NCBI GenBank assembly: GCA_030704615.1
Contig: CM060733.1
Span: 41,540,001-41,604,000, forward strand
DNA length: 64,000 bases
Direction: 5' to 3'
Origin: Takakia lepidozioides
Lineage: Eukaryota > Plantae > Bryophyta
A program made the position numbers and the translations under genes. Below are positions 23,473 to 50,700 of the stretch, piece by piece (positions within the stretch are counted from its first letter, which is position 1; the number at the start of each line of letters is the position of its first letter). The notes under the pieces were generated by a model. That model was not told the DNA's origin and made no database searches. It was given only the letters and a program-made list of their open reading frames with translations.

Positions 23473-23858
23473 ATCCAAGCCATGCATCAATTGGTGTGGT
23501 TTTAATTGATCCGTTCGGTCTAATATATAAGCAATTAGCTGAGTATATTGGTTTCCCAATTTCTAATAATGTGGCAGAATATAAAGCTCTCATAAGGGGT
23601 TTGGAGGAAACGAAGCTTCATGCCATTTCTAGTGTTGAAATTAATACAGACTTTGAATTGGTCTACTGTCAAATCACTAGAGAATATAATATTTATGATA
23701 TGAAACTTTGCCAATTGAACGAAGAAGTCCAGAAGTTGTTAAAATTATTTGACTCTGTCACAATAAAATGTATTCCAAGGGAAGAAAATCACCTAGCATA
23801 CTCATTAGCAAACATAGCTTTGACTGCTAGAGTGGGGTTAGAAAGAGTGTTACATTGA
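23457..23858 (+). pseudogene. Archaeal-type (RVT_3/aRH) RNase H ORF upstream of gag; N-terminal catalytic Asp region missing or degenerate
   Basis: Translation PSHASIGVVLIDP...SNNVAEYKALIRGLE...INTDFELVYCQI...CIPREENHLAYSLAN matches the aRH motifs TNNxAEY, GDSxLV and PRExNxxADxLA. Confidence 0.88.
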
Positions 23859-23941
23859 ATTCATACAACTGAATTATTGAGCGTCATGCCCAATGCAATC
23901 TCTTTAAACCAATTCCATAATACTACATTTTATTATGACTT

Positions 23942-29174: not shown

Positions 29175-29345
29175 TGTTTAACCATCCGGACTGTTCATAA
29201 TCGTCTTTCCAAGGTTTTTAGACTCCAATTTCTTAGAAGCTTCACTTAACATCATGATTTCAATTGTTTCTGAAACGGAGTCTGAGAGGATATATGAGGT
29301 CAATATTCATTTTGATTTCCGTATAAAGGCTGAAGTCATGATCCC

Positions 29346-29741
29346 TTGGTGTTACCAATAGTATGGACTTTACATTATGGACTTTCACGCAGTGGTTGGA
29401 ATTGGGTGATAAAAGATGTCAAAAATCATGGAGATGAAGAACATGTTGATTTTTGGACAGTAGTTAATGGTGACCATCTAGCTTACTTCTTTCCACCTTT
29501 AAAATTTCCTGGATATCGTAAGGTAGAAATTGGAAAGAATGTGTTGATGCAATATATCATTGACCCAATGGAGTTTTTTGGAAGACAGGCAGGTACAGTC
29601 AACATACGCTCTATGGTCAGTGAAACCTACTATGAGGAACAAGGCGAAGAAAAACAAATTCTAATAAAAGAAAATCCATGGGGGGTCTTTATTTTTTTAT
29701 TTTTGTCACACACAATCAGCCTAACATTCACTAAAGATTAA
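29346..29741 (+). CDS. Extra ORF of unknown function between integrase and the 3' LTR
   Basis: A 131-aa open frame with globular-looking composition in AT-rich surroundings. No motif recognised. Confidence 0.35.
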   Translation: MVLPIVWTLHYGLSRSGWNWVIKDVKNHGDEEHVDFWTVVNGDHLAYFFPPLKFPGYRKVEIGKNVLMQYIIDPMEFFGRQAGTVNIRSMVSETYYEEQGEEKQILIKENPWGVFIFLFLSHTISLTFTKD

Positions 29742-30650
29742 TGGGACCAGTTGGGGAGAAGGGGGTCCGATGGGAAAAAACTTGAGCAAATGGCTCATAC
29801 CTTATTGCATTTATTTCAAGCAATCCAAGCATTCTTGCATTTACACTTAACGCACCACTTGGATAACTTTCCACGGGCTTAAAATAATTGGTTCTAACCC
29901 AATAACCTTATATTAGGGTATGTATATTTATAAAGTACTACACAAGGATGATGCAGCATACACAAGAGTCCATAATGGACTGCAGTATATCATGGGAAAA
30001 AGATTTGGGTGCATTTGTTTGATAATATGAGTATGAGAATTTCAACCTTGCTCTCACCTGTTTTGGAAGAATAAACCCATGCATGCATCCTGGCATAAGC
30101 CGGTGGACAAGGAACCAGAGGGGGTAACCTTTTCCGGATTATATCACTTCACTGCTCCTAACCACTTTTAAAAAAAAAAAATGGGAAGATCTCTCATATG
30201 AGGGACGGTCACACACTTTGCTATCATCACTTACAAAATATAAACGTGTAAAAATGTATTTTCTGCACAGCACAAAAATAATGCACAAAAGATAAAGAGC
30301 AGAATATTTAAAAGACATAAAGTTCTTGTAAGTTAATACAAGTTACTGTCAAGGTTGGACAGTAAATCTTGAATTCCAACAAAGTTCTTCTTACAGCGTC
30401 TCCTTGAGTTTATAACGAGTGAATCATTTTATTTAGATTTCCATATTTATTTTACAAAGAGATTATTTGGGTATATATGATAATAGTTTCATGTTATTAT
30501 CTCTCTCACACTAACCAGGGATTCTGGGTTCGTCGTCAAGGGACTAACTGTATCGGTATGATCGCCAAAAATGTTAAGTGAATCTACAGCCTTGTGCTAA
30601 AATCATGATCTATAGAGAATATTAGCACCAATTGATATGGGCTTTGAACT

Positions 30651-31205
30651 TGAGACCTACTCCGCGAATATGAGGTGTGAAAATAATTTAAAAACATTCG
30701 AAAAACTTTTGTTGTGTCAAGGATTGATCCTAAAATCTCCAAGGAGTGAATTTGGAGGAAAAACAAAGAAATTATTGGAATCCTGGAAATTAAAAGGTGC
30801 CAGAACAGAAAATTAAAGTGACCAATGAGAAAGAAGGAACCATTGGTATCTAAGAAATAAAGCGTTGTCCCTTGAAAGAAAATGATGAAAAAGAAAAAGG
30901 AGAAGAGGACAAGAAGGCAAAAAAAAAAAAATGACTGAAGGACATGGAGCAGAGTAGGAATCAAGGAAGGAGACTAGATGAGGGGTGGTAGTATGAGAGA
31001 CTACGATTGAAGACTATGAAGAAGGCTATAAAAGTAGATTGAAAATGTGGAAAATTGCCTAGACGATGTACACATTTAAATATAAATAAATGAAATATTT
31101 ATCAAGCTATCTATTGAGTCATTGATAACATAGTCATTTCACTTGTCCAAGGATCCGTAAGCCGGACATGGAAAGGTGGGTATCGGATCCATGGTGGCCA
31201 AATTC
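30651..31205 (+). repeat. 3' LTR of the first Gypsy (may extend to ~31472)
   Basis: Direct repeat of 22912-23472. AT-rich LTR-like sequence continues to gggaCA at 31472. Confidence 0.75.
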
Positions 31206-32854
31206 TTGGCTGCCTGAGATCAGATCTGCCGGAACACCGCAACTCCTTGATCTTAAGTGGAAGGCTTAATTACATAAAGGAAATAAATAGTAGCATAGGA
31301 AACAGGAAAGCGATGAAGGAAGAACTATAATATTTGTCATCATTTTCAATATTATAATGAAGTTAGTTTTCCATTCCCTTCATTTGTGAAATAAATAAAT
31401 AATTATGTAGCGGGAAAATATGGACAAACACCATTGACCCCGCGCCCAGTTTGAGCGGAAACAAAAGGGACAGAACCTGCTTCTGTCAGGGGTTGACGTT
31501 GGTAGTATGACTTACCTTCATATATAGAATTAATCCGGGTTTTCCAGGTGAAGTAGAGTTGTTACGCTTTGCTTTGTCGGTAGGAATTAGACTATCTAGA
31601 TCCGTCCATAACTGCCACGGACCCCTGCACTTACCGCAGCCGCGTAGGCGGTTCGTTGAGCCCAACCTACACCGCAACTTGTCACGACCCCCTAGGCTAG
31701 TATGTCGTCACCCTGGCCGCGCGCGACCAGGGCTCGTCACTAAGCAGTCTCCCTCATATGAACAATACTTAGCCTCTGCAGCGTTGTTCGATCGGCTAGC
31801 ATAAGCCACTACGAACTTTCTTCCCTCATCATCCACTTGTGTGAGCACCACTCCACCAGCATGCTCCAATCTGTATGCAGCTGAAAAGAACGCTCCTTGA
31901 TAGGTCGTCTTAAGATATGCGCTGAGGTCAACCTCGCCTTGAGTTCTTGAAAAGCTCGTTCTTGCTCATCTTCCCATTGCCACTCCTGGTTCACTTTGGT
32001 CAGCTTGGTTAGAGCCTTTGCAATGGCACTAAATCCCTTGACAAACCGTCTATAATAGTTTGCCAACCCCATGAAAACTCGAACTCGGCTCACATCCATG
32101 GGGCGTGGAATCTGTGCAATGGCCTCTACCTTAGTCTATTGTACCCCCAATCCTGCAAGATATATCATGTGACCCAGATACTCAATCTGGTTGTGGAAAA
32201 AATTGCACTTCCCCGGATGTAACTTTAGTCTGTGCGCCCTCAAGCGCTCAAATACCACTTGAAGGTGTCTCTCATGCTCCTCCACCGTAGCACTAAAGAT
32301 GATGATACATCATCTATGTAGCACCGAGCAAACTCCACCCCTGCTAGAATCCTGTCCATGACTCTCTGAAACTCTGCAAGAGTGTTCTTAAGCCCAAATG
32401 GTAAGAACTGCCATTGGTATAGGCAATCCTTCCCATGCTCATTGATCCCTCGGAATGCCGTCTTCTGCTTATCCGCCTCCTTGATCGGCAACTGGTGATA
32501 TCCGGATCGTAAATCCAAAGTGTTAAAGACCTCGGCATGCCCAATGGCATAAAAAATCTCCTCTAGTGTTGGCATGATATACCTATCGGACTTGGTCTGA
32601 CAATTTACACGCCGGTAATCACAACACATACGTCTCTGCGTCCAATTGCCATAGACATCTTTCTTGGCTAGCATCACTGTGGCTGAAGCATGCTCTTCAC
32701 CAGATAGCTCCACCAAACCAGCCTCCCAGAGGTCCTGAATCCTCACCTGAATCAAGGACCTCTCCATGTCACTGTATCTATAGGGTCTCCGAAAGATTGG
32801 CGTGTCAGTGGCCAATTCAATGCGAATCTCTTGACCCTTCAGTGCTCCCAAGTC

Positions 32855-33451
32855 TGTCAAGGACGAGAACATGACAGAACACAAACAAGAGATCAGACTA
32901 GAGGTACAAGACTAGACAAGAAGTCAAGGTCGGCGTGGCCGAATGCATGGTAGGTGAACATGAATCAAAATGATCTTTATAACAATGAACAAGAGTACAA
33001 AATACTGGAACTCGACTCGGATAGTGGAATGCTGGAAACTGGACTGGATACTGGAAGCTGGACTGGAGTACTGGACTTGGAATTGGAGTAGCTTGAACTT
33101 GTGTTGGCAAGACTGAAGAGTGTCCAGTCTCGCCTCCTATATATACTGGCTACTAAGAAGCTTCCCCAAGAAGCTTCCCCTATGGAGGTTTCTTGTTGGA
33201 GAAGTTTTCAAGATTAAACAAAGGTTTATTGATGGAGAAGCTTCCTTAAACAAATGAGGTATCTTGATGGAGAAGTTTCCTCCAAAGGAAGCTTCCTGAG
33301 TAGTTTCCCAAGTTACTCTTGGTAATTTGGTAAACTCCCGATAATTTGGTAAGTAATGATAAATCATGGTAGATCATGGTAAATCATGGTAATTTGATAA
33401 CTTCTGGTATTTACTCCTGGTGCTAAGTTCCTCTGGGCTATGTCTGTGACA
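32855..33451. mobile_element. Solo LTR (597 bp) of another family
   Basis: Starts TGTCA and ends TGACA. Flanked by a perfect 5-bp TSD AAGTC (32850-32854 and 33452-33456) inside the RT start of the minus-strand element. Confidence 0.9.
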
Positions 33452-33670
33452 AAGTCTTTCAAACTGAAGACAAGCAGTTCTTGTAACCTTCAAGAACCGC
33501 CGTATACGTCGTCTCTTTCCTCTGGTTACTATGGGTCCAATATCAGGCTCCCAGTTGTCCTCTGTGACTGCAACCTTGAGTCCAGCAGGCTTAGAGGTAG
33601 AAGACGCGTCCCGTGGTTGTTATGCCGTAGCCTCTTGAGGAATCCCTGTCTGCTCAGTCCCTGACTGCTC

Positions 33671-34037
33671 TGTCATGGTTTTAATCATGGTTATCTAGAA
33701 TTACCTACTTCTAGTTAACTAGAACATTTTAGATATTTATATTTATATTTTGTGTGTTGGGACTTCATTTGGTCTCACATGCCAAGTGAGGTGTCGAGCC
33801 TCACTTGGGACATGGGGATAGGTTTTCCCCTTGTGATGATGGATGAGGCTCATCTTCTTGTAGTTGAGCCTCCATGAGCCTCTCCCACCTCCATAGCTCT
33901 AGGTATTGAGAGGGAGTGTGGTGAGGGCTTTGTAGGGTGGATTCCCTTAGCAAATGTGCCCTTGGCTTGACTTAGTTTAATTGATTGAGTGGATTCATGA
34001 GTGGAGTGTTTCCATTGTGTGTTCACTTCCATTATCA
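33671..34037 (+). repeat. Terminal repeat A1 (367 bp)
   Basis: Matches 44291-44657 with 9 substitutions counted by eye and no indels. Confidence 0.95.
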
Positions 34038-35504
34038 CTACAAGAAGATCACCTTATGCTTGTGAGTGCGGAGTGTAAGGATTAGTTTTAGCACTTGTGT
34101 TGGTGTACACCAAGGAATGAGGGAGCTAGGAAAGCTCAAGTATCTCACAAGACTTGCAAGGTGTTGCAATGAGGAGTGTTTTTGCATTGCATCAAAGAGG
34201 TGGAGAGCTCAAGAAGAGAGCTCTTGAGTTACAAGACTTTGCAGAGGTGGAGAGCTTAAGGAGAAAGCTCTTGTATCACAAAGCTTGCATGGTTTTGCAA
34301 GGTAAGTGCTTGTATGTGCACTAAGGGTTTGAGAGCTTGGAAAAGAGCTCTTACATCACAAGAGAAGTGTCTTGTGTGTGGAGAATTTAAACACTAGGGT
34401 TTCAACAGCAAGCTCTAGTACTTGTTCATGGTGTGAAAGAGAAGCCAAAGAGCGGCACATGCTTGGGTTGGAACACCATAGGAGGAGTACAACAAGGGTA
34501 GCTTGATGAGCATTGAGTAGCTCAAGAGAAGCTAAGAAGTGGTTGTTCTATCCATGGTGAAATGAAGCCAAGTGGGGTTTCATTTGGTTGACAAACAAGC
34601 AAGCGAAGGCGGCGCTAGAAGAGAGTGATTTTGCTAGTTCTATGAGTTCTTGGATTGCTCTTGGTGAAGCAAGTGATTGACCAAGCAAGTGGCGTATGTG
34701 TGGAGCATGCTTTCCAAGTATGGCTTCCAATTCAAGCTTGAGGAGAGCTAGAAGGTGAAGTGAGCAAGTTCATTCCTTGTGTATGAGGTGGTGCATGTTG
34801 TGGAAGAAAAGCCAAGGAGCTACATAGGTTAGGGCTTGAAGACAACAAAAGCAACCAGTTGGAGAGCATCAAGAAGCTCCAAAGGAAAGCATGTGGGTGA
34901 GAATTCTATCCATGATGATGTGAAACCAAGCCTAGAGTATTAAAGAGCTTGGAGCGCATGTGGGAGATCATTGGAGGTGGTCTTCATGAAGAAAAGAGAT
35001 TGTGGCTCACGGCATGCATAGCAACTTCAACCATACATTAGCATGTGACAAGACAAGGAAGGGGAAGGTGAAGCTCATGTATTCATTCCTTTTTTGCTTA
35101 AGTTTTGTGGTGGATGGTTGATCAAGCAAGTGATGCTTATGTGGAGCATGCTCTTTAGGGCTTGTGACTTCAAGTTTGAGAAGATGAGCTCTTGAATAGA
35201 GGTGTGGATACACATTATGATGAATGAAGACAACACCTAGGTCAAGAGGTGGAAGTGTGTGTGACTAGCCCACGCAAGGGAAAGCACATGGAAGATGGCA
35301 TACAAAATTCAAATTCAAGCAAGGCTTGGCACTTGTCATTGGGCACATTAGCGTGCTATGAGTTCCAAGGAGATCAAGAGGAACTTGTCAATTTGGGATG
35401 AATGCATTGCAAAGTAAGATAATGCAATCTTGCATGCATGCTAGGGGGGAAGATACCATGAAGAAGGTGTTTCTTACTATACTTTACAAACCCTAGTCCC
35501 CATA

Positions 35505-35690
35505 CTCTTCAAGAAACTGTGTATGGGCTCCCTCTGCCCATCATACACTTTTGTGAACAGAGTATGGAACCCCTCTGCCCAACATACACTTTTGAGAACA
35601 GAGTATGGGCGCCCTCTGCCCAACATACGTTTTTGTGAACAGTGTATGGGCTCCCTCTGTCCCGCCATACACTTTTGTGAACAGTGTATG
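35505..35690. repeat. Minisatellite of ~38-39 bp units, about 4.5 copies, in the element leader
   Basis: Unit approximately catacacttttgtgaacagtgtatgggctccctctgccc. Confidence 0.85.
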
Positions 35691-36591
35691 AATACAAGTG
35701 GAGAGACTTTGTCTACCATACGTTTTCATTAAAAGTGTATGACATCTAGGGTGTATCTGGAGGAGTATTGCCCAATATTTGGCAAACATTTGGAGCTTTG
35801 GAGGGCTATTTGGAGGACTATTTTGGGGTCCTTGGAGGCTAATATTTGGCGAGCTTAAGGAGTCTTTGGCAACTTGTCTGAAGGACTTTTTGGGGTCCTT
35901 GAGGGCCAAGATTTGGCAGGCTTTGGGGGCCTTAGTGAGATTGTTTGAAAGACATCTTGAGGGCTCTTGGAGAGTTATTTGAGAGACCCTGGAAGGTAGT
36001 TATGTCTGTTGGTCATGAGCAAGAGCGTTTAGAGATAGGGGGAGACTAGTGGGATGAGAGCATTCTAGGATTAGGAATTGCTTTAGTCTCTCTTCCTCCT
36101 ACTCTTCCACCCTCTATGTAGGCCAAAACCTTTCCGTAGGTGGAGGCAAGAGTCAGTCCGGGTTTAGGCTGGGGTGTCCTTGCAGGAGCGACACTGTGGA
36201 GTGTTTTTTTGGTGTGGGGAGTTACTGTCTTGATTTTCTTGTGTTTGGATCCCCCCCACACCTGCATGCTTGACTGTGCGCCATGTCAGTTTTGTGTGGG
36301 CGCTTGTTTTCATAGGAGGTTGGTCTGGATTTGATCACCGGCCAATCCTAGAGCATGTTGTCGGTGGTGAGGCTGGGGTGATGACCAGTCAGACCATCAT
36401 TGTTTCTCTTATGGTGAGGCTGGGTTGATGACCAGCAGACCATATGAGTGCTTGCGGTGGATGCAGGTGCAGGTTTATGCTACAAACCTAGTAGTCTAAG
36501 CCATAAGCCGCAACAGGTTCTCTACCCGGTTACCTTGTGGAAAGGGGGATTAGAGACAGGTTTACAACAGGTGTGGTTGTGAGTTTTCATC

Positions 36592-38700
36592 ACGGAGGTG
36601 CCACCAATTGCTGAGGAGAGTGCCGGTACGAGCACCAGCGATACTAGTGGGTATACAAGACGAGGTGTGCGGTTTAGGCCACCTTCACCTTCAGTGTCTT
36701 CTGAGGAAGGTTTAGACTCAGAGTTAGGAGGATTCTCGCCGAGGGTGCAAGCCGTTTCCGTGCCATTGTTGTGGGATAAAATGGAGGAAATGTATGGAGC
36801 TACCAAGGGGCCACGTCGGTACTTTGGAGCTGTGTGCACCATCGAGCTTGATGATTTCATACAGGAGTTTGATAGTTGGTGTGATTTGCAGCAGATGCGC
36901 AATCCATAACTGTTTACACATTTTATGGCGTGGAAGGGGCTGTTTCAGCACCTTGAGGGGCCGCCCATGGATGACTACCATGAGTTTAGGCGGGGACATG
37001 AGGTGGAGATTGAGGAATGGCGGGTGTATTGGTCACCTGACTATGTCTCCATCACTAGAGGCACAAGGGCAGTGGTGACACCGGTAGCTACACCGGCAGC
37101 TTCTGCAAGCAGTAGTGGGACGTCAAGTGGAACATGAGCTGGGAAGTCCACCCAAGTTCTTGCTGCAGCACCAACACCCGTGCCTGCTTTTAACCCAGTT
37201 GTGGAGTTCTTCGAGGAGTTAAGGAGAAACTACCAAGGGATAAGGATAGAGAAATTGCGGAGCTTGCAAGAGTTCCAGCGCAAGCCTACTGAGAGTTTGA
37301 GGGAGGCTTACACGCGCATGAGGCGATTGATAAATGTAACCCAAGGGATTACGGAAGCTCAAGCAGTCCAATTGTGGTATGGGATATTGGACAAGGAGTT
37401 GAGGAGAAGGGTGCAGGATGCAACTCTCCTACAAGTGGTCCAACCCACCTTAGCAAATGTGTTTTTGCTGGCAGAGCGGATAGAGCTCAATATGGTGGAG
37501 GAGCGAGTGGTCATGGTGGGATTTGGTAAGGAGACACAATGAAGTGGGGCTCCTAGCCAACAACAACCACTACCCCAACATGCTCAAGGCAACAAGGGGG
37601 CTCAGGCGAAGCCCAGGGAAGGACAGAAAGGATCTCAATTTTAGAGGTCACTTCCTTCATTCTCAGGCCAACAACAGTCGGGTGTGACATGTTGGGATTG
37701 TGGAGGACCCCATGTTAAGAGAGATTGCCTGGAGAGAGGCAAAGGGCCGACACAGGCACAGCCTACACAACTACAGTGTGGGCATTGTGGCAAGTATGGG
37801 CATGAGGAGGCCCATTGTTATGACTTGCATCCTGAGCTACGGCCAGGCCAGTTCCAAGGGAACAATGGTGGCCGAGGACGAGGCAATGTAGTCCAGAGAG
37901 GTAGAGGAGGCAGAGGTCGTGGTGGAGGACGTAACCAAAACCAAGGAGCACAGGGTCAGGGTCAAGGTCATGACCAAGGCATGGTGGATAGACTTGCCCA
38001 GCTAGAGCAACGTCTTGCTGCCATGGCCACTACTCATGTTGCGCCAGCTCCAAGGCTTGAGGTTCAAGCCCCACCTGCACAACCTCCTATGCCTAGGGAA
38101 GACCAGATTGGTATGGGCTTCATGTGTGGAGCCACACTTGCAGGACCATTGCATGTGGACTCTGCAGCTGCTGTCACTCGAGCAGCAACGCGTGCTCCTG
38201 AGCCAAGAGGAGCGGATGTGGATTTTGATCCACAAAGAGGGGAAGCAAGTCGGCAGACAAGGCTTCCACAGTCTTTCACATTGGCTGAGACAGGGCCAAC
38301 TATGCCATCGATGGCACCCGCTCGCCCAAGTGTGTCAGAAGTAGAGCCACGAGTGTCATTGGGGAGAGTTGGTGTGGCTCGGAAAATGCCAGTGGGTGGT
38401 GCAGCAAAGCAAGGTGCAGCCAGTACATTGTTGGGGGCGGCTACGGCAATTTGCCAAGCTCCATTGTTTTCTGCCACGACAATTGCAATGCCGGGGATAC
38501 GGCCAGCTGCAGTGTTTAGACTGGCAGCTGCACTCTGTGAGAGTGGTGATGCATCGGCACTATCTGCGGGGATAGCGGATCAGGTGCAGTGCATGGATGC
38601 CTTGGATTCAAGGGTGAAACAGCCACAGCTGCGCCATGGCAAGCGGCAGCTGCAAGGTTGCAGGAGTTGCCAGCTAGACCAGCCATTGAGCGTAGTATGG
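36592..38700 (+). pseudogene. gag with two CCHC zinc knuckles and an RGG/Q-rich region; interrupted by in-frame stops
   Basis: LDDFIQEFDSW, QKPTESLREAYTR, CWDCGGPHVKRDC, CGHCGKYGHEEAHC, GRGRG repeats. Confidence 0.88.
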
Positions 38701-39150
38701 TGACTCCCGGGGTAGTCCTGGTGGACAATCAGGATGGTGTGTTTCAGTTGGGTGGCCCAGCCGGGAGGAGGTATAGGCCACTGCGGGTCTTGTTGGACTC
38801 GGGAGCACAACCATTGATGTTGGGAAGAGCAGCAATTGCAGGCTTGGGCCTTACAGAGGCGGATTTGGAGCCTTGCCCTTTCCAAATTCAAACATCTTTG
38901 GGCGGTTTAGAGAAGGCACGAGGGATTACACGCCATGAGCTCTTCATTCGATTGCAGCCAGATCATCCTACAGATGGCTCTGTCATGAGAGCTAAAGCCA
39001 TTGTTACGGACGCGATGTCTTATGATGTACTTGTTGGTGGGGCTGTGTTATACCCGATGGGCTTTACTTTGGACTTTTGGGAGGAAACGGCATCCTACAG
39101 GCCGGAATGGCAGTCAGGGGATGGTCGACGTGCACTGCTCCCAGTGCGGT
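38690..39150 (+). CDS. Retropepsin-like aspartic protease domain
   Basis: VLLDSGAQPLML active-site motif and YDVLVGGAVL C-terminal motif. Confidence 0.85.
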
Positions 39151-39513
39151 TTATTGGGAATGTAGCGGTGGATCATAGGAACATGATGCCCACATTGGCT
39201 GCATTCTCAGGGGTGGTGGCTTGGGGTGGTGAGCTCTTGGAGGGCAATAGCCATGCAGATGATAGGCCACCACCTGATGAGGACAAACAATTGGCATACA
39301 AGGCTGATTTGCTTCCTCATGTGTCTGTTCATATTCCACTGTGGGGTACAGTTAGGAAGTACCAGGCGAGTGTGTGCACCAAGCATGGCAGGAGGCATAT
39401 CCATTGGTGAGTGAGGGGAGTTCAGTGACATCACCTGGACTTCAGTGACATCACCTGGACTTCCTCAGTTAGCTCCTTTGGATACAATGCCCATTACCTG
39501 GCAACCATCTGAC

Positions 39514-40460
39514 TGTTTGCTAGACCTGTTTGGAGGCATGAGCACTGGGCTTGCAGGAGTGTTGCAAGCTGGGATTAAAGTACGCAAGTACTTGTATGTG
39601 GAGAAGGATGAGATAGCTCGGCGTATTTCTATGCGCCACATCGCCTTGCTCACACACCGGTACCCTGAGTTGTTGCCTCTCTCAGCAATTCAAGTGTATC
39701 AAAAGGCCTTGCCAGCAGACATTACCTTGCTGGGGGCGGATGATTTGGACCGGCATGGTGCCATTGACTTGGTGATAGCTGGATGGCCTTGCCAAGGACA
39801 CTCTCCCGCAGGTCATGGGAACGGCTTGCATGATGCACGATCGCATTTGTTTTGGGAGATGTTGAGAGTGTTGCGTGACTTGCAGACGAGGCAAGTGCAA
39901 CCTCTAGCCTATATCTTGGAGAATGTTCCTCTTATGGGGGACTCTCGGGCCAGGGTTATGGCCAGTGTGCATCAGGTGCAGTCTTGGATTGGATCGGCGG
40001 TGCTATTGGATGCAGCAGCGGTGGGATCACGAGCGCATCGACCTCGATTGTGGTGGACCAATCTTGCACCACCAGAGCTGCTAAAGAGAGCATACGATTC
40101 CATTCAACGGCCACCCAATCTCACAGTATATGGCATTTTGGACCAAGGGAGGCAACCACAGAGGGTGCGACATGATGACCGTCCACCTCTAGCAGTGGTA
40201 AATCGAGTGGGGCAGCCATGTGCGGCCTTGCCTACGCTCATGAGCTTTCCCTCGTCTCATGCTTTTCGAGACAATGGTCCTGGGTTGATTTGGGACAGTG
40301 TGCTACAACAATTGGTGGAGCCCAATGCAGATGAGCGAGAGCAGGCAATGGGATTTGCCACGGGCACTACAGCTGTGCTAGCTCTGTCAGAGGCATCACG
40401 TCGGCATGTGTTGGGTCAAGCAATGGATCTAAATTGCTTGACATGGGTCATTGGCTTGTG
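39514..40460 (+). CDS. DNMT3-like C5 cytosine DNA methyltransferase domain embedded in pol; frame uninterrupted
   Basis: Motif I LLDLFGGMSTG; II YLYVEKD; III ADIT; IV DLVIAGWPCQGHS; V SHLFWEMLR; VI YILENV; VIII SRAHRPRLWWTN; IX EREQAMGFATGTT; X SRRHVLGQAMD. Confidence 0.95.
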
Positions 40461-40959
40461 CATGGCTGAGCAACGGAGGTTGCAGACAGTGGTGGCTACT
40501 TCTGCACTCCCATTTGGTATTGTATCCCCTCTGCCAACCGGGACGGTTGAGGCAGTGGCGAGCACAGGATCATGGGGTGCAAACACCCATGGCAGATGTG
40601 GGATGAGATGCGGAAAGAGAGAGTCCTTGGATCTCTCAAGCAGCAGTATGAGGAGTGGGGAGAGCCATACACTGAGGATCAGTTGGAGGCCAAGGTGGCC
40701 AATGTTTTTAAGAGGTTGAGAATGCTTTTTCCCCAGAGGATGTTCTCAAGGTGGTTATGGCAGAGCAAGTGGAGGCTACGCCACAGTCAGATTGGGCGGA
40801 CAAGGCCCAAGAGGTTGCTATCTAGCAACCAAAGGATTCGTCTCCTACCTCCAAGCCTGATGTACCCAAGGTTGCAGTCACTGAGGACAATTGGGAACCA
40901 GATGTTGGACCTACAGTCACCGGAGGAGAGAGACGGAGGATCCAGCGATTTCTAAGGGC

Positions 40960-42310
40960 TTATAGAAATTGCTTTGCCTTCGGTTTGAAGGATTTGGGGA
41001 GTTTGAAGGGTCAGGAGATTCGTATTGATTTGGCAAGTGACACGCCAATCTTTCGAAGGCCCTACCGGTATAGTGACATGGAGAGGTCATTGATCCAGTC
41101 ACGGACTATGGAGTTGTTCGAAGCTGGATTGGTGGAGTTGTCAGGCGGGGAGTATGCCTCGGCAACGGTGATGCCAGCTAAGAAAGATATCTATGGCAAT
41201 TGGACAGAAAGAAGATGTGTGGGGACTATCGTCCTGTGAACCGTCAGACTAAGTCCGATAGATATGCCATGCCAACTCCAGAGGAAATCTTTGATGCCAT
41301 TGGGCATGAAGGTGTTTAGCACATTGGACTTGCGATCCGGTTACCACCAGTTGCCAATCAAAGAGGCTGACAAGCAAAAGACGGCATTCTGGGGGATTGA
41401 CCAACATGGGAAGGATTGCTTGTACCAATGGCGCTTCCTACCGTTTGGGTTGAAGAATGCTCCTGCAGAGTTTCAGAGGGTTATGGATAGGATTCTCGCG
41501 GGGCTAGACTTTGCCCGGTGTTACATTGATGACATCATCGTCTTAGTGCTACGGTTGAGGAGCATGAGAGACACCTTCAGGTGGTGTTTGAGCGCTTGAG
41601 AGCGCATGGGTTGAAATTGCACCCTGGGAAGTGCAAGTTCTTCCACAACCAGATTGAGTATCTGGGCCACATGATATACCCTGGAGGATTGGGTGTTCAA
41701 AAGACGAAGGTGGAGGCCATTGCACGCATTCCACGCCCCATAGATGTTAGCAGAGTTCGTGCTTTCATGGGGTTGGCAAACTACTATCGACGGTTTGTCA
41801 AGGGATTTAGCAGCATTGCAAAGGCTCTTACTAAGTTGACCAAGGTGGGTCAGGAGTGGCAGTGGGAGGAGGAGCAGGAGGAAGCCTTTGAGGAACTCAA
41901 GGCTTGATTGACTTCTGCACCTATTTTGAGGCGGCCTTTCCAGCTACATACGGATTGGAGTATGCTGGGGATTGGAGCAGTGCTTACACACATGGATGAT
42001 GAGGGAAGAGAGTTCGTAGTGGCATATGCTAGCCGCTCAAACAATGATGCCGAGGCGAAGTATAGTTCCTATGAAGGGGAGTGTCTAGCTGCGGTATGGG
42101 CAGTGGCACATTTCAGATGCTACCTCTATGGCAATCTCTTCACCCTTGTCACGGATCACCAACCATTGAAGTGGTTGATGGAGTCAGACAAGCTTACAGG
42201 GAAGCTTGCACGGTGGGCACTTATGCTTCAAGAGTACGACTTCCAGGTGGTGCATCGAGCCGGTATAGTCAATCGGGATGCAGATGGATTGAGTCGTAAT
42301 CCATGCACGA
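40960..42310 (+). pseudogene. Gypsy reverse transcriptase and RNase H (frameshifted)
   Basis: LDLRSGYHQ, PFGLKNAPAEFQR, YIDD, LHTDWS, YEGECLA, VTDH, DADGLSR. The RNase H catalytic residues are retained. Confidence 0.95.
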
Positions 42311-42639
42311 GCGAGCATGATGATACTGGAGCTCGGTGGCATGGTGAGACGGATGAGGAGATGGTGCCAGGATGGCACGCATCTGCCTTTTTATGCATTC
42401 TAGCAATGGGAGCTCAAGCTGGTCCATCCCATGTGATTGGTCATAGAGATAGTGTGCATGACGATCCAGAGATCAGTGAGGAGCTTGGTGGTGCTAAGGA
42501 TGTGCATGAAGATGCAGCAGTGTTGGCCTACTTTCGTATTGGAGAGACAACAGCCAGTGTGACTGCTAAGGAGAGAGATCGGATCCTACAACGAGCCAAA
42601 AGGTTCAAGTGGGAGGGGACTCACCTACTCCGAGTATGG

Positions 42640-43946
42640 GAGGATGGACGAGTGAGGATTGTGCCTCATCCAACACAACGAGCGCGATTGGTACGCCATG
42701 CCCATGAGGAGTTGGGACATTTTGGGTGCGGCGCACTCATAGTTTGCTGCAAGGACAGTATTGGTGGCGGGGCATGCACACGGATGTGCAACAGTTAGTG
42801 GCAAGGTGCATGGTGTGTGATAGAGTGCGGGCTTCTTTCAATGCACCTACTCCACAATTGCATCCTTTACCCATTATGGGTTTGGGCTATCGTTGGAGTC
42901 TTGACTTCGCAGGCCCATTGCCACTGACGATTCGCCATAACAAGTATGTGCTGGTGATGGTGGAACATTTCTCCAAATGGATTGAACTGGTGGCATTGCC
43001 TGACAAGGCAAGTGAGGGGGCTGCGTATGCATTCTTAGATCGAGTGCTTAGCCAATTTGGTGCTCCAGCCGAGGTACTCACGGACCAGGGGAGAGAGTTC
43101 TTGGGGGAGTTTCAGGCTTTGTGTGAGCAAGCCTTGATAGATCACCGCACTACTTCTCGGGATCATCCCGAGGCTGATGGCTTGGCGGAGAGAGTTGTTC
43201 AGACAGTCAAGAGAGGTTTGCGCAAGTACGGTTTGCAGAAGGGACACCTAGGAGATTGGGACCTTCAGCTGCCTTGGCTAGCTATGGGCTATAGGTTCAG
43301 CAAACAAGCTTCACTTGCCTCCTTCTCACCTTACTTTCTTCTCTTCGGCCGAGAGCCAGATTTGCCTGCATCTATTCGCAGGGAGACTGCAGTCCTCAAC
43401 CTTGATGATCCGGATGTGTGGACACAAGCATGTGCCCAACGGGCAGAGTTGTTCAAGAGAGTCATGCCTATGGCTTTTGAGAACCTTGCTATTGCCCAAC
43501 ACCGAGACACATTGAGGTACGCCACTATACGTGGAGGGGGATATCGGCCAAGTGTTCGGCGTTTCCATCCTGGGGACTATGTGTATCTGCAGCAGACAGC
43601 GCCTACGACTTTGGATGTCACAGCAGGTCGTGTGATTCTAAGGGTCCGGGAGGTGTTGCCTTCAGGAGTGTTGATTCTGGAGGGTCGAGATGGCATGGTA
43701 TGGAAGGACCATGTGCGCAATTGTGCGCCATGTCACCTTCCACATGTGGATGGGAGGATAGATCCCAACCTTGCAGTGGTACCTGCAGGGTTGCGTTGCA
43801 TGCTATGTGGGCATGCTGGTGGTGCCGCGACCATGTTGGTGTGTGACAAATGCTCAAGGGGGTGGCACATGGGATGCTTGACACCGCCACTTGAGGAGGT
43901 TCCTAGTGGAGAATGGTTGTGTCCACGATGCCTTGGACAGAGGTAG
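42640..43946 (+). CDS. DDE integrase with a C-terminal PHD finger (~43796-43933)
   Basis: HHCC (HEELGH...CMVC), WSLDFAGP, LTDQG, DGLAER, followed by CMLC...CDKC...WHMGC...WLCPRC (C4HC3). Confidence 0.93.
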
Positions 43947-44191
43947 TGGGGGCATGACAGTGGTGAGGTTGACAAGTGATCCAAGGTCTAGCTAATGGGA
44001 GTTCAATGCCATGACACCCAATTGAAGCCATGGATTGCAGGAAGGCGAGTAACGATGGGGCTACTTTTGCACCCGGCCTCTTGATCTATTGCCTTCAGAT
44101 ACTGGGACTTGGGCGATTGATGACCAAGCGATGATCTTATTGGGATGGATACTTGTCAGCTATCCGGTGTTAGAGGGACCTAATCACCAGC

Positions 44192-44203
44192 TAGGGGGGC
44201 GAT
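44192..44203 (+). promoter_or_regulatory. Polypurine-tract-like plus-strand primer site directly before repeat B1
   Basis: taggggggcgat immediately precedes TGTGGTATAGC at 44204. Confidence 0.6.
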
Positions 44204-44743
44204 TGTGGTATAGCTTTCTAGGATTGTGTGCTTAGATTGTGTGGTGGACATCGATGTATGTTGTGGCACGATGCTTAGGTGCACGACAGCTGTCATGGTT
44301 TTAGTCATGGTTATCTAGAATTACCTACTTCTAGTTAACTAGAACATTTTAGATATTTATATTTATATTTTGTGTGTTGGGACTTCATTTGGTCTCACAT
44401 GCCAAGTGAGGTGTCGAGCCTCACTTGGGACATGGGGATAGGTTTTCCCCTTGTGAGGATGGAGGAGGCTCATCTTCTTGTAGTTGAGCCTCCATGAGCC
44501 TCTCCCACCTCCATAGCTCTAGGTATTGAGAGGGAGTGTGGTGAGGGCTTTGTAGGGTGGATTCCTTTAGCAAAGGTGCCCTTGGCTTGACTTAGTTTAT
44601 GTGATTGAGTGGATTTATGAGTGGAGTGTTTCCATTGTGTGTTCATTTCCATTATCATTGTGGTATAGCTTTCTAGGATTGTGTGCTTAGATTGTGTGGT
44701 GGACAACGATATATGTTGTGGCACGATGCTTAGGTGCACGACA
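44204..44743 (+). repeat. 3' repeat block B1 (44204-44288) - gc - A2 (44291-44657) - t - B2 (44659-44743)
   Basis: The B copies are 85 bp with 2 substitutions. A2 matches A1. Confidence 0.95.
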
Positions 44744-47700
44744 GCTCTGTCAGTGACAATGCCTCATCCAGCCCTATCATCTCACCCTTGCGGACCTCCT
44801 TAACCCGAGAAAAATCCCCAACCTCATCCATCATTGCTGCCTTGGCTGCCAACTCCCTCTGAATCTCAAGCACTTCCCACGTATGTCATGGATGTCTGCA
44901 CCCTGTGGTCCTCACCTGCTCGCCCCCACTCACTGCCTATACATTCTCGGTAGGCAATGAGATTGTCAAATAAAGGGTAGTGACGAAAGTTATCCGCATT
45001 CTACGCTGCTCAGCCATACCTAGGTTGACAATCCAGGTCAAGCAATTGAGATCCATTGCTTGCCCTAGCACCTGACGACGTGATGCCTCAGAAATAGATG
45101 GCACCGCTGTGGTACCAGTGGAAAAACCCATCGCCCGCTCGCGCTCGTCAACATTGGGCTCTAACTGCTGCAACTGGACATCCCACAAGAGACCAGGTCC
45201 ACCATTCCGGAAAGCATGATATCCTAGAAAGCTGAGCAGTGTAGGCAATGCTGCTCGTGGGTGACCCACTTTATTAACCACTGCCAAAGGTGACCGGTCA
45301 TCGTGTCTTACACTCTGAGACTGCCTCCCTAAGTCCAAAATGTTATCCACCGTGAGGTGCTGGCCGTTGCATCCCATCAAATGCACGCTTGAGTAGTGAA
45401 TGTGGCATCAAATTGGTCCATCACAGCAGTGGACGATGAGCCCGTCACCCCACTGCAGCTGCATCCAGCAACACTGCTGACCCAAGCCAAGACCGCACTT
45501 GATGCACACTGGCCATTACCTTGGCCCAAGAATCACCCATCAATGCCACATTATCTAAGATGTATGCTGGAGAGTCCATCTACTGAAGCTGTAAGTAGTG
45601 CAAGATCCTCAACATCTCCCAAAACAAGCGCGACCGTGAGTCTTGCAATCCATTGCCATGCCCGGCCGATGAATGTAATTGGTAGGGCCAACCTGCCACT
45701 ACTGAATGAATGGAGCCAACCCGCTTCAAATCCTACGCCCCTAGCAAAGAGATGTCTGCTGGTATCCACAAACTGCAGACACCGGCAACAACTCAAGGTA
45801 CTGCTGCACCAGTTGAGTAACATGGCGCAGTGAGACGCATCATGCAGTCTCATCCCTCTCCACATACAAGTAACGTTGTATTCGTACACCTGCTTGTAGC
45901 ACAACAGCCAAACCAGTGCTAATCCTGCCAAACAAGTCCATAAGGCAGATGCATTTTTTCGGGTACTGCCACACAATAGGTGTGGTGTCCAATGGTGACA
46001 ACTGAGGTGGTCCTAGTGCAATCACCGCACTCTCCTCCTCTTTTGACGGTACAAAGGCCTCTACCCAGGCTTGTTGCACCCGTCTATCAACAACATGCTG
46101 CAAATCTTTGCTTGTGCCATACAATGGAGTGTGAGCAACCATGGCAGACAACTCCGCCGTACTATGCATATCATCCTGTTCTGCTGAAGGTGGCACATCC
46201 TCTGTATGAGCATTTCCTTCTAGCAACTCTCCAGGCCATCACATAAAGTTGCATACGCCGACCATCCCTTGACTGCCATCCAGGCCTGTAAGATGCTGAC
46301 TCCCCCAAAAAATCCAGGGTGAAGCCCATGGGGTACAACACTTCCCCACCAACAAGGACATCGGAAGTGACCGCGTCTATCACAATGGCCTTGGCTCGCA
46401 TCACTGAGCCATCTGTAGGGTGATCCGATTGTAGTCTAATGGCCAACTCACGTCATGTTATGCCCCGAGCCTACTCTGATCATCCCAGAGATGTCTGTAT
46501 CTGAAAAGGACATAGCTCCATATCCGCCTCTATGAGCCCTAAACCTGCGATAGCTACTCTGCCTAGCATAAGTGGCTGAGCACCCGAGTCCAATAATACT
46601 CGTACTGGCCGACACCTCCTGTCCGTCGACCTACTCAAACAGAAAAAACCATCCTGGTTGTCAAACAAAACAACTCCAAGTGTCACCATGGTGTGTTTAA
46701 TGGCTGGCCTAGCTGGCAGCTCTGTCAACCTGGCAGCTGCAACTTGCTAAGGCGCAGCCATGGCAGTCTTGACCCTCAAATCCAATGATCTCTCCAATAC
46801 AACACCTTCCACTAACTCCGCAGAAGAAGATCTTCCCACTCTCACAGAGTGTCACCGCCAGTCTGAACACTGCAGTTGGTCGTACCCCCGGCGTTGCAAT
46901 CATAGTGGCCAAGAACAATGGGGCCTGACATACAGATGTGGCCGCCCCCAGCAGCACACTGGCTGCACTAGCCTTGGCAGCAGGTATTGGTGCTACCCCG
47001 TGTGGCTCTCCCCAAGGGCACAATAACCTCTGCCTCGATATCCGTCGGGCGAGAACTAGGTGCCATGGATGGCGTCGATGTTGTCTCCGTCAATGTGAAT
47101 GATTGAGGCAGTCTGGCCTGACAGCTTGCCTCCCCACGCTGTGGATCTAACTCCACCTGATCTGCACCTCGTGGCTCATGAACTCGTGCTGCTCCTCGAG
47201 TCACAGCTGCAGCAGAATCCACCTATACAAGTGGTCCTCCGAGTACTGCCCTGCATATAAATCCCATGCCTCCCATGCCTGCCATGTCTTCTCCGTCAGG
47301 ATAACACTGCTGAGGAGGAATAGGAGGTGGACCCTCAGAAAGTCATAACACTGTGCCTCTCCATGTCCATACTTGCCACAATAGCCACATGTCAACTGTG
47401 CAGGTTGTGCTTGTACCGGCCTTTTGCCGCTCTTTAGGCAATCCTTCTTGACATAGGATCCTCCACATGTCCAATACACCACCAGGCTGGTTGCTGTTGG
47501 CCTACAAAAGAAGCTACTGGCCTCTGCACCTGAGGTCCCCTGTAAGCTCTATGGAGTTTGGGTTGGGCAACCTTGCCCCTCTGACCACGCTGTGGTATGG
47601 TATGTTGCGCTTATTGGTTGGTAGACACACCCCATGGCATGTCCTTGCCAAACCCAATGGTCACTACACGCTCCTCCACCATGTTAAGCTCAATCCGCTA

Positions 47701-50700
47701 GCCAGCAGAAACACATCTGCTAAGGTTGGTCGGGCCGCTTGTAACAGGGTTGCATCCCGCACCCTTGTTCTGAGCTCTTTGTCCAATATTCCATACCAGA
47801 ATTGGACTACCTAAGCTTCAGTGACCCCTTGGGTCACACTTATCAAGCACCTCATACGAGTGTAGGCCTCTCGTAAGCTATCACTGAACTTGTGCTGGAA
47901 GTCTTGAAAACTTCGCAGCTTCTCTGTCCGTACTTCTTGGTAGTTCCTCCGCAACTCTTGGAAGAACTCCACCATCGGGTTGAATCTAGGCACATGTGTT
48001 GTAGTCGTGGCAACAGGAGTGGTAGCACCTTTAGAACTAGTTCAACCTGCAAAAGTACCGACAACACTTGTTCCACTACTAGTGCTTGCCGTTGGAGTTG
48101 TTGGTGCTGATGCAGCTACTGGTCGCGTTGTGCCTTGAGTAATGGAGACGTAGTCAGGTGACCAATACATCCTCCACTCCTCAATCTCTGCTTCATGTCC
48201 TCGCCCGAACTCATGATAATTATCGTCCATAGGCGGGCCTTCCAAATGTTGGAATAGTCTCTTTCACGCCCTGAATGGGGTTGAACAGCTGTGGATTGCG
48301 CATCTACTGCAAATCACACTAGCTATCGAACTCCTGGATAAAGTCATCCAGCTCGATTGTGCCCATAGCTCTAGAGTACCTACGAGGCCCCTTGGTAGCT
48401 CCATACATCTCCTCCATGTCATCCCACAACAATGGCAAAGGAAACTGCACACCTATTGATGAAGCCTCCGAGTCTGTGTCAGACTTTACACTAGATGAAG
48501 GTGGGGGTGAAGGTGGTCTGAACCGAACCCCTCGCCTCGTGAACCCACTGATAGTACTGGTGTTAGTGTTGGCATGTCCTTCTGAACCCTCTGGCAATTC
48601 CGTGATGCCCGTTGTTATCCAAACCTGTCCACGTGATACTATAAGGCTCTATAGCGAGCTCTAACAGTGACACGGGTGGGCACATGTTGTGCTTAAAAGG
48701 TCATGTCCCAATGGCTAAAGGCACCTGCACCTGCATCCACCGCAAGAACTCATATGGTTGGCTGATCATCAACCCAGCCTCACCATAGAAGAAACACTGG
48801 TGGTCTTGCTAGTCATCACTCCAGCCTCACCACCGACAACATACTCTAGGATTAACCAGTGATAAAATCCGACCTAATCCCTATGAAAGCAAGCGCCCAC
48901 ACAAAACCAACATGGCGCACAGTCCAGCATGTAGATTTAGGGGGGATCCAAACACAAGAAATCAAAACATCAACACCCCCACATCAAAATCCCTCTGCAG
49001 TGCTGCTCCTGTAGAACATCCCAGCCTAAAAACCCCGGACTGACTGGCCTCCACCAAGAGAGGCTTTGGCAATTACAACCACAAGTAATGAAAATAGTAA
49101 AGAAAGGGAGGGGAAAAATAGAGGCCCGACCAAGCAAGATCTAATCCTGATCTATGCTATCAACTGCCAGACTTCTCTCAAAATGCCTCGCTCTTCATGA
49201 TGGTAAGGTGTAGGAGGTATATCTATGACCCAAAAACCTGCCAGTAACCTTATTCCAAGCTACAGTAGCTCGCTCTAACCAGCCCTCCTCCTCTTTGCCA
49301 GGTAGAGACAAAACAATGCTCCCCTATCTCCTGCTTACTGAATACTAAAGAAAATAAAGGTAGGGTCTGACAGTCTCTCAACTCGAAAGCTTTGAGACGG
49401 TTGCGGGTGTCCTCATTGCGAATGACTGCATCTCCTTCAAGCAGAACAAACTGTTCATTGCTAATGAACCCCCGCTCGTGGTTGCCTCGTGAAGAGCGTG
49501 TCCGGCTGCAACTACGTCTGATTGCAAAAACTTGTGCAGCTCCTGCTCCAGTACAACACGGCCTTGAGGCTGAACATCTGGTCCCCGGGGCTGTTTTTGG
49601 CTGTGTTCTAAGCCTAGCTTCCACCCACTTTGATATTTCACCTACAGCTGCAAAATTGCTTTCTCCCACAGCACTCTGCCCGTTGCCTGACTCCCAGTAT
49701 GCCACAAGGTCATCCAATTGGCTTCCACTTAGCTCAGCACGTGTGCCTTGGGAAATAATTTTTTTTTCCCCAAGTGTTTGAAGACTCAACGAGGAGATGA
49801 GCCATTCAATGGCATCATCATCCCCTCCATCCATACACTAATCCAAAACAGCGTCAGGTGTGTTACCAACACAAAGCTCACTGATCATCCATTCAGTTGA
49901 AGCAGTTTATTCAATAGGCCTCAAATAGATATGGGGAGGGTCTAATTTACATTAGAAAAAATCTATAGATTTTTGGCCAGGTCCAAAAAACTAAAACCTA
50001 GGTAGGTAGATTAGATAAGTATTAGATTAGGTAGGTAGGTAGATTTTCCCTTTCTGCAGGTCCCTGCGCAAGTTTGAAGCCAAACAGGCTTTGTACGCCA
50101 AAGGTATGGCCAAACAGGCTCTGTAAACATAATATTTGACCTTAAATGGTAACAAATACAAGGAATTTTTTTTTTTGCTTTCCTTTGGTTCCCTCTTCCT
50201 ACGTTTTATGCGATGCCCTGCAGGTTCCACGTACAGTCACCGTTCCCAGGTGCCATCGATTAATGCACCAACCAAATTGAATTCACCAAGGCAATGGTCT
50301 CCGCTGATGCAATACATCTGATGTCAGCCGCCTCTGTGAATGGATTGAAAGAGCCAGACATATGATTATCAAGGTCAGACATGAACCTGAATTGAGACCA
50401 CACTGCTACCCGTAAGCACTTACACGGCCCCAACAGGTCACCTCGCGATGAAGTAACAACACACTAGCTGCAACACATCCAATATAGGTTCATCATGTAC
50501 ACCTTGTAAGAAAACCCTCTTGGAAATCTGAATCCGTGGACCTGGTGCGTGTAGCAACTTCCAAACAGCCAGTCTTATACCACAGTCTCAAGTGAGCTGG
50601 TCGCCTCAGACTGTCATGCGTTGAAGAACTTGCAAATTGTGTCTAGCAGATTCGGCCTCCCAGTGACATCTCAACTCACAGTGGGCTATGGGCTTACCAC

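Follow-up and report, generated by a model that had tools for sequence, protein, structure and literature searches.

The locus described here raises the question of what a cytosine methyltransferase might be doing in a Gypsy retrotransposon of a bryophyte, and in which of the element's proteins it is made. The window, i.e., the whole stretch of 64,000 nucleotides of Takakia lepidozioides DNA that was analysed (assembly GCA_030704615.1, contig CM060733.1, positions 41,540,001 to 41,604,000), had been predicted to hold such an element with a DNMT3-like enzyme inside pol. The kind as such, DIRS-like repeats included, is already known from the alga Klebsormidium nitens as KnitGypsy-Dnmt3 (de Mendoza et al., 2018; available text of PMC5890265), whose authors left the role of retrotransposon DNMTs open, without a tractable Gypsy-type host. 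According to the available part of a 2019 opinion piece (PMC6338049), land plants such as tracheophytes have no methylase-coding transposons.

Organization of the element and its surroundings

The element of interest (copy 1) is 11,073 bp long (33671-44743), has the ends TGTCA...GACA and is flanked by the 4-bp target duplication GCTC. Its domains follow the order gag-CCHC, protease, methyltransferase, stop, reverse transcriptase (RT), RNase H, DDE integrase and PHD finger, with the following features:

33667..33670, + strand: 5' target-site duplication GCTC, repeated at 44744-44747
33671..34037, + strand: repeat A1, 367 bp, TGTCA...TATCA, left end of the element; likely core promoter and R-U5
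33852..33863, + strand: predicted self-primer and 5' end of the transcript, complementary at every position to the 12 bases that follow A1
34038..34049, + strand: primer-binding site of the self-priming type, first bases not TGG
34050..36780, + strand: long 5' leader with short tandem repeats
36781..38586, + strand: gag with CCHC knuckles; stops at 36907, 37135, 37540 and 37642; frameshift ahead of the protease
38655..39365, + strand: aspartic protease region, DSG at 38796
39421..39462, + strand: 21-nt tandem duplication in the protease/methyltransferase linker, site of the frame change in copy 1
39514..40458, + strand: DNMT3-like C5 cytosine methyltransferase domain, motifs I-X, without stop (profile, structure-sequence, fold and motif evidence)
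40823..40831, + strand: conserved stop with readthrough-type context, TAG CAA CCA, in the RT frame (motif from PMC2754532)
40889..42330, + strand: RT and RNase H, with frameshifts and one stop
42636..43700, + strand: integrase (H2C2 and DDE core), one frameshift near the start
43797..43946, + strand: PHD finger at the integrase C-terminus, then a stop; no chromodomain
44193..44202, + strand: polypurine tract immediately 5' of B1, the same in relatives
44204..44288, + strand: repeat B1, 85 bp, TGTGG...GACA
44285..44294, unstranded: palindrome GACA-GC-TGTC at the B/A boundary, its halves equal to the two ends of integrated copies
44291..44657, + strand: repeat A2
44658..44658, + strand: A2/B2 junction, one base here
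44659..44743, + strand: repeat B2, right end of the element
44744..44747, + strand: 3' target-site duplication GCTC

The PR-RT-RH-INT order, the DDE integrase and the Ty3-type RT (the latter assigned on a Marchantia relative, P0015) place the element in Ty3/Gypsy. It has the TG...CA ends, short target duplication and polypurine tract of this group but not a whole LTR at each end, there being A on the left and B-A-B or B on the right instead. No tyrosine recombinase match was found in the five element ORFs scanned; a DDE integrase and a 4-bp duplication are present instead. A1 and A2 are identical at 358 of 367 positions and B1 and B2 at 83 of 85, and since the repeats differ at just 9 and 2 bases, respectively, the insertion is fairly young. 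Copy 1 is nevertheless dead, with four stops in gag and frameshifts around the methyltransferase, in RT and in the integrase, while contigs of four public runs held many further copies free of several of these breaks.

Copy 1 sits between the methyltransferase and the RT of copy 2, an older element on the minus strand, which is accordingly split in two:

44748..49070, - strand: 5' part of copy 2, with leader, gag, protease and a broken methyltransferase (about 45006-45950)
31745..33666, - strand: 3' part of copy 2, with TAA CAA CCA at 33622-33614, RT and part of RNase H

The insertion of copy 1 explains the displaced position of the second part, and a contig of run X1 joins the two sides. The original prediction had named a second, diverged copy with the same domain, and this copy is real (69% DNA identity); its methyltransferase is broken, however, by frameshifts and five stops, and of the changes in its catalytic motifs (C>Y, E>D, R>L) the first removes the catalytic Cys. 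An unrelated solo LTR (TG...CA, 32855-33451, 5-bp duplication AAGTC) interrupts the copy 2 RT. Copies of the family lying inside or beside related elements were seen in the window (33671-44743), in L048 (from 14630), in L020 and in L066/L069; such nesting may reflect insertion into silent, repeat-rich chromatin.

Elsewhere in the window, a spliced ARM-repeat/BTB host gene occupies 58329-63999 on the minus strand, one exon being 90% identical to Sphagnum proteins. Over 454 columns, identity was 93% to Sphagnum, 90-91% to ferns, 86% to a lycophyte and 80% to an alga, the columns having been picked against Sphagnum, which inflates that value; in a tree whose rows include no liverwort or other moss, the gene groups with Sphagnum (bootstrap 94). 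It points to a likely bryophyte host, and its spliced structure spoke against a bacterial source of the window. The remaining repeats comprise a decayed LINE with endonuclease and RT (9900-15100, minus strand), an unrelated AT-rich Ty3 element (22912-31205) whose repeats measure 560 bp (95%) and which has an additional RNase H-like ORF (PF13456, 23385-23858) upstream of gag, and, between these two, a degenerate array of ~300-bp units (15464-17643).

The methyltransferase domain

The methyltransferase had been described as complete, with catalytic PC, ENV and RxR and no stop, and this proved correct. The stop-free ORF 39415-40719 encodes a C5 cytosine methyltransferase whose match to PF00145, the profile proposed for checking, lies well above the cut-off (E 1.3e-13, 51.5 bits, cut-off 22). 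Motifs I, IV (PC), VI (ENV), VIII (RxR), IX and X were all found in unpermuted order, with the codons for F at 39529, the catalytic C at 39790, E at 39919, R at 40039 and 40045, and the motif X G at 40414. The domain is flanked by the protease (DSG at 38796) and RT (YIDD at 41522), and in copy 1 its frame differs from that of the protease.

The motif words originally quoted for the DNMT3 affinity (LSLFDGIATG, DLVIGGSPC, LFFEF, HRARYFWGN, ERVFGFP, RQRLLG) turned out to be those of human DNMT3A; the window itself reads LDLFGGMSTG, DLVIAGWPC, LFWEM, HRPRLWWTN, EQAMGFA and RRHVLG. The affinity was nonetheless confirmed at three levels. A sequence search of solved structures ranked DNMT3A/B/C first (E 6e-12), a 21-sequence profile searched against solved structures gave E 4e-21 for DNMT3, 8e-10 for DRM-type enzymes and 2e-6 for M.HaeIII, and Foldseek with the predicted model (moderate pLDDT of 63.5) returned DNMT3A/B/C as the top fold match (E 1e-12). 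The window domain is thus nearer to DNMT3 than to DRM-type, DNMT2 or bacterial enzymes. Residues 211-266 of the model, corresponding to the target-recognition part, have a pLDDT below 50 and are unreliable, so that the sequence context of methylation is not predictable from it. Host DNMT3 (animal DNMT3A/B/C and bryophyte DNMT3) shares the unpermuted motifs I-X and provides the best sequence and fold matches, whereas the element domain is only ~20% identical to it, has no introns, lacks PWWP and ADD, contains longer insertions and is fused to Gag-protease.

Distribution and conservation of the family

The closest named relatives of the domain are from Marchantia polymorpha (69%), Calypogeia fissa (68%) and Sphagnum (67%), with further ones in M. 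paleacea and Riccia, which establishes a presence in land plants; relatives in Closterium and Klebsormidium agree with the algal precedents named in the original prediction. A metagenome scan with the domain returned 346 related loci, the best 80 of which were kept; 77 of these 80, called peat-moss-like below, match a Sphagnum-named protein best among the 12 proteins tried. In kept loci of at least 5 kb, the protease lies directly 5' of the domain in 50 of 52 and RT lies 3' of it in 45 of 52, in line with the proposed family trait, although these loci were selected by containing the domain, so that relatives without DNMT would be missed. In run X1 the summed contig depth was lower for the domain (89,000-170,000) than for the RT-to-integrase part (217,000-661,000); depth is not equal to copy number, but relatives lacking DNMT may exist. 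A host gene nested by chance was ruled out by the lack of introns, the conserved frame and the 346 metagenome loci. Viral contigs searched with a single protein gave no match.

A profile search yielded 480 clusters at E 1e-30 or better, falling into two layouts. The first, PR-DNMT-RT, includes Klebsormidium nitens and Closterium; in the second, RT-RH-DNMT-INT-PHD (47 long proteins checked), the methyltransferase lies between RNase H and integrase, and this layout includes a chlorophyte, Scenedesmus sp. PABB004 (proteins P0035-P0047, P0254-P0391). The DNMT tree, a quick tree with SH-aLRT support only and with element domains as its sole rows, separates the layouts (43 vs. 37 rows, SH-aLRT 100) and assigns copies 1 and 2 to a group of 14 rows that also contains Marchantia, Calypogeia and peat-moss-like sequences (SH-aLRT 99). 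The RT tree agrees with this split, its streptophyte side being weak (0.58) and represented by Closterium only, with one partial outgroup. A partial Klebsormidium protein (P0336, GAQ93235.1), in which a protease is followed by DNMT, shows 37% identity across 323 columns and groups on the same side of the DNMT tree. A single ancient capture of DNMT would be the simplest reading of these trees, while two captures, or horizontal transfer, may also underlie the two layouts.

Two annotation matters emerged from these searches. The protein P0075 carries the label of a metagenome-assembled genome of a bacterium, but in the tree it hardly differs from element locus L056; that assembly likely contains plant or algal DNA. 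The Marchantia gene models Mp4g09160, Mp8g17980 and Mp6g11220 (P0001, P0004 and P0006) are the element's first ORF annotated as host genes, and the family inflates DNA-methyltransferase gene counts in bryophyte annotations.

Over 308 codons of the methyltransferase, copies 1 and 2 differ with dN 0.205 and dS 1.47. The resulting dN/dS of 0.139, below the Ka/Ks of 0.2 used for KnitGypsy-Dnmt3, is comparable to that of gag (0.112) and RT (0.083), the protease having 0.107; it indicates purifying selection, and neutral evolution of the domain was not borne out. Between the window and the metagenome loci dS is close to saturation, and close peat-moss-like copies (dS <0.3) gave dN/dS of 0.4-1.0 for all domains, which is the expected outcome of decay once copies have inserted. 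Conservation across 67 distinct copies is highest at the catalytic and SAM-binding residues: the catalytic Cys is present in 62 of the 65 copies covering the site, Glu in 64/67, F in 61/62 and N in 67/67, at a mean column majority of 0.82. The arginines of motif VIII, encoded by CGN codons, have decayed in a pattern typical of CpG deamination.

Split repeats and the predicted route of integration

The repeats are arranged as A...polypurine tract-B-gc-A-junction-B. Among relatives, the A after B is reached in 5 distinct loci and 14 distinct loci end after the first B, with 4-bp duplications in both end forms, perfect in 7 of the 10 relatives with both ends; among 20 distinct 5' ends, not one has a B ahead of its A. 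A conventional round of reverse transcription, starting from the primer site that follows A and using the polypurine tract that precedes B, would instead yield B-A at both ends. The GACA-GC-TGTC palindrome is kept in 7 loci, the diverged clade included. Its central GC is altered by transitions (AT, AC, GT and GT) in four of the seven (L052, L054, L058 and L048), which fits the expectation from CAG/CTG-site methylation after insertion. A more distant PHD-bearing element (L048, 16564-17216) likewise ends in B-A-B, and its palindrome is longer.

The A2/B2 junction is different in all 5 independent copies, being T in the window and AT, GT, 17 bases or 21 bases in the relatives, and the long junctions contain bases following A1 and bases preceding B1. 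As this content matches a linear cDNA whose right end has been joined to its left, we infer that integration would proceed from end-joined cDNA, cut at the internal palindrome. Retroviral integrases can cleave palindromic LTR junctions. Random opening of a free 2-LTR circle would also be expected to give the form A-B-A...B, seen in 0 of 20 5' ends, and its absence requires either an end-to-end jump of RT or a biased integrase.

The A...B-A-B ends might instead be copied from RNA as in PAT/TOC1-type DIRS, without an end-joined intermediate, the A...B form arising by later recombination only. The repeat pattern of DIRS is indeed identical (PMC5890265, Fig. 4 legend), the A-B-A...B form was not seen, and recombination between two B repeats would preserve the target duplication. 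We still consider this origin unlikely: an inherited junction should be common to copies 92-95% alike, yet it differs in each; the junctions carry bases from the primer site and from the polypurine side; the element has a polypurine tract ahead of B1 and a primer site behind A1; and there is a DDE integrase with 4-bp duplications. Overall, PAT/TOC1-type DIRS resemble the window family in the A-coding-B-A-B repeats, and SymbioDIRS-Dnmt3 in the capture of DNMT3, but these elements have a tyrosine recombinase as opposed to the DDE integrase, 4-bp duplications and Ty3-type RT found here.

The 12 bases after A1 are exactly complementary to 33852-33863 within A1 (1 of 20000 shuffles was as good), and the predicted RNA fold closes this primer pair in a 13-bp stem (z -3.5). 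The best fold-back occupies this position within A, ~30 bases past a TATA-like box, in 12 of 22 peat-moss-like 5' ends; the four base differences from the window in the peat-moss-like fold-backs are all compensated, and the diverged L058 has its own version. In the other 10 of the 22, the best fold-back scored below 9.5 of 11 or lay elsewhere, with control 11-mers reaching 8.5-10.5. Taken together, the complementarity and its compensated changes point to a self-priming of the Tf1 type. A tRNA primer was excluded by the lack of a TGG start and of any tRNA gene in the window, and a CACTA insertion after A1 was dropped, the bases in question being the primer site. In the available text of PMC4600332 and PMC6317226, the same layout, with a primer site that pairs with a stretch of the 5' repeat, is given for Tf1, Tj1 and plant Tcn1, and Tj1 in addition has a stop between gag and pol. 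These elements differ in having ordinary LTR pairs, where the window family has split repeats, a PHD finger and a methyltransferase; in the chromovirus Tcn1 a chromodomain follows the integrase, as opposed to a PHD finger and then a stop.

A conserved stop between methyltransferase and RT

A stop in the RT frame lies 3' of the methyltransferase in both window copies (TAG CAA CCA at 40823-40831 in copy 1, TAA CAA CCA in copy 2), the consensus being TAG-CAR-YY(A/C). Such a stop is present in 58 of the 62 kept loci that reach the region; with near-duplicates collapsed, 47 of 52 distinct loci have the stop with CAR, two have it with a mutated CAR and three have none. The 50%-identical clade has TAG CAG TTA or TAG CAA TCA within otherwise unrelated flanks. 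Fourteen related gag-PR-DNMT proteins (Marchantia and Calypogeia included) terminate 96-149 residues past motif X, and four proteins of a clade sister to Closterium continue into RT; for Marchantia, Calypogeia and Klebsormidium the stop context and ends are deduced from protein ends only. Tobacco mosaic virus uses CAR YYA after UAG as its readthrough signal, which is functional in plants (available text of PMC2754532). The peat-moss-like copies mostly have CAA CCC, one base off this motif, followed by ATG.

Because the stop lies 3' of the methyltransferase, the enzyme belongs to the Gag-protease ORF. The original placement inside pol is therefore not supported as worded: the domain does lie between protease and RT, but in the bryophyte family it ends the gag-protease ORF and the conserved stop precedes RT. 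This is unlike KnitGypsy-Dnmt3, whose domain shares one uninterrupted ORF with RT according to its authors (peer-review file of PMC5890265). In bryophytes the methyltransferase would thus likely end the abundant first protein, Gag-protease, and be made in bulk, with a minority readthrough of the stop yielding the predicted RT-integrase-PHD product; a leaky stop would mean many enzymes per particle instead of one enzyme per RT. That RT-integrase arises by re-initiation, or is translated from an RNA of its own or a spliced one, with the methyltransferase still in the Gag protein, is quite improbable: most peat-moss-like copies do have an ATG two codons past the stop, but both window copies, L004 and the diverged clade have no such ATG, and all keep CAR-YYA.

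Possible role of the enzyme

On balance, we lean towards the following reading. The window element belongs to an old and abundant Ty3/Gypsy family of bryophytes, of the KnitGypsy-Dnmt3 kind, and is a decayed member of it. The methyltransferase of this family ends Gag-protease, is likely packaged in many copies and likely methylates new cDNA, so that the insert arrives already marked. The starting point is the observed order gag-CCHC-PR-DNMT-stop-RT-RH-INT-PHD with a domain under purifying selection. Most ribosomes would end at TAG-CAR-YY(A/C) and few would continue to RT, integrase and PHD, leaving more methyltransferase than RT. Transcription would begin inside A1, and the 5' end of the RNA would pair after A1 and prime as in Tf1, giving a linear cDNA with B-A at both ends. 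The right end of this cDNA would then be joined to the left, either in a 2-LTR circle or by an end-to-end jump of RT, and the integrase would use the halves of the internal GACA/TGTC palindrome, producing A...B-A-B copies; A...B copies would result if two palindromes were used, or from B x B recombination at a later time, and, having no 3' repeat, would be dead ends.

The weakest part of the scheme concerns what happens to the cDNA itself. Methylation of cDNA before integration would be the likeliest use of Gag-tethered methyltransferases, and the PHD finger, likely reading unmodified H3 tails, would steer insertion to silent chromatin, where a pre-methylated insert would blend in. The nesting of copies in their relatives fits insertion into such chromatin. 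The PHD is closest to the fingers of CHD4, KDM5 PHD1, PHF21A and ATXR5, which bind unmodified H3 tails and prefer unmodified H3K4. In the available text of PMC9940879, Chlamydomonas Gypsy-7a_cRei likewise has a PHD finger in a green-lineage Ty3 polyprotein, but no methyltransferase is reported for it, and its domain order and ends differ.

The enzyme could also act on chromosomes and not on particle cDNA, methylating the insertion site, sibling copies or competitors and so limiting or timing the activity of the family. Being encoded before the stop, it is not tied to RT or integrase, and the DNMT3 of a Symbiodinium retrotransposon methylates CG on yeast chromosomes and a plasmid (available text of PMC5890265); the fusion to a Gag with nucleocapsid knuckles favours packaging instead, and we regard a chromosomal action as rather unlikely. 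Least convincing of the proposed roles, and doubtful in our opinion, is that the domain binds or shields cDNA, or marks the internal palindrome or RNA, with bulk DNA methylation not being its job. It would agree with the Klebsormidium enzyme, which gave no methylation in yeast, a result that its authors call inconclusive (available text of PMC5890265), and with the dependence of the family on an unusual internal palindrome containing CAG/CTG. It would also agree with the CpG observed/expected ratio, which at 0.46-0.50 in the element versus 0.37-0.56 in neighbouring repeats and host DNA shows no extra depletion; neither by CpG nor by CWG ratios is the element singled out from its surroundings. 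The yeast result and the CpG ratio also count against the preferred reading. The SAM-binding and catalytic residues, however, are exactly those kept best in the family (F, C and N as given above, against the column mean), which speaks against such a role.

Beyond the preferred reading of a particle-borne enzyme that marks cDNA, a wider one is put forward only tentatively, its odds being clearly on the low side. The family would belong to a green-lineage-wide Ty3 branch that predates the chlorophyte/streptophyte split and is abundant in mosses and liverworts, with DNMT3 in the capsid protein and cDNA methylated in the particle, and for which end-joined cDNA cut at an internal palindrome would be the normal, productive precursor and not a dead end.

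Relation to published elements and significance

KnitGypsy-Dnmt3 and the window family share the Ty3/Gypsy domains, a divergent DNMT3-like domain under purifying selection and the DIRS-like A...B-A-B repeats (available text of PMC5890265), and the homologous domain follows the protease in both, as compared via the one partial Klebsormidium protein. The host here is a land plant, as opposed to the acquisition in the K. nitens lineage given in that text. The available text on KnitGypsy-Dnmt3 (PMC5890265) mentions neither a PHD finger nor self-priming, and no target duplication, palindrome or variable junction. No report of a bryophyte DNMT-Gypsy element was found in the openly available papers searched, nor in the available text of PMC6453930, PMC9985172, PMC10952607, PMC11982613, PMC6317226, PMC2774666 and 10.1101/2021.11.30.470311; PMC12344493 and 10.64898/2026.05.21.726589, as far as their available text goes, speak of 'streptophytes', citing the 2018 paper, and their supplements may hold land-plant rows. 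Within the same scope no published description of the stop, self-priming and variable-junction features was found, and the conserved stop, the compensated Tf1-type fold-back and the A...B-A-B ends with palindrome and variable junction appear to be new.

Since close relatives occur in Marchantia polymorpha, for which methylation mutants exist, the question of the role of retrotransposon DNMTs becomes testable. DIRS-like repeats in an element with a DDE integrase had been unexplained, and the ends of this family would supply a mechanism for them. The ends also touch on a long-standing question, whether cDNA with joined ends may be a real precursor of integration.
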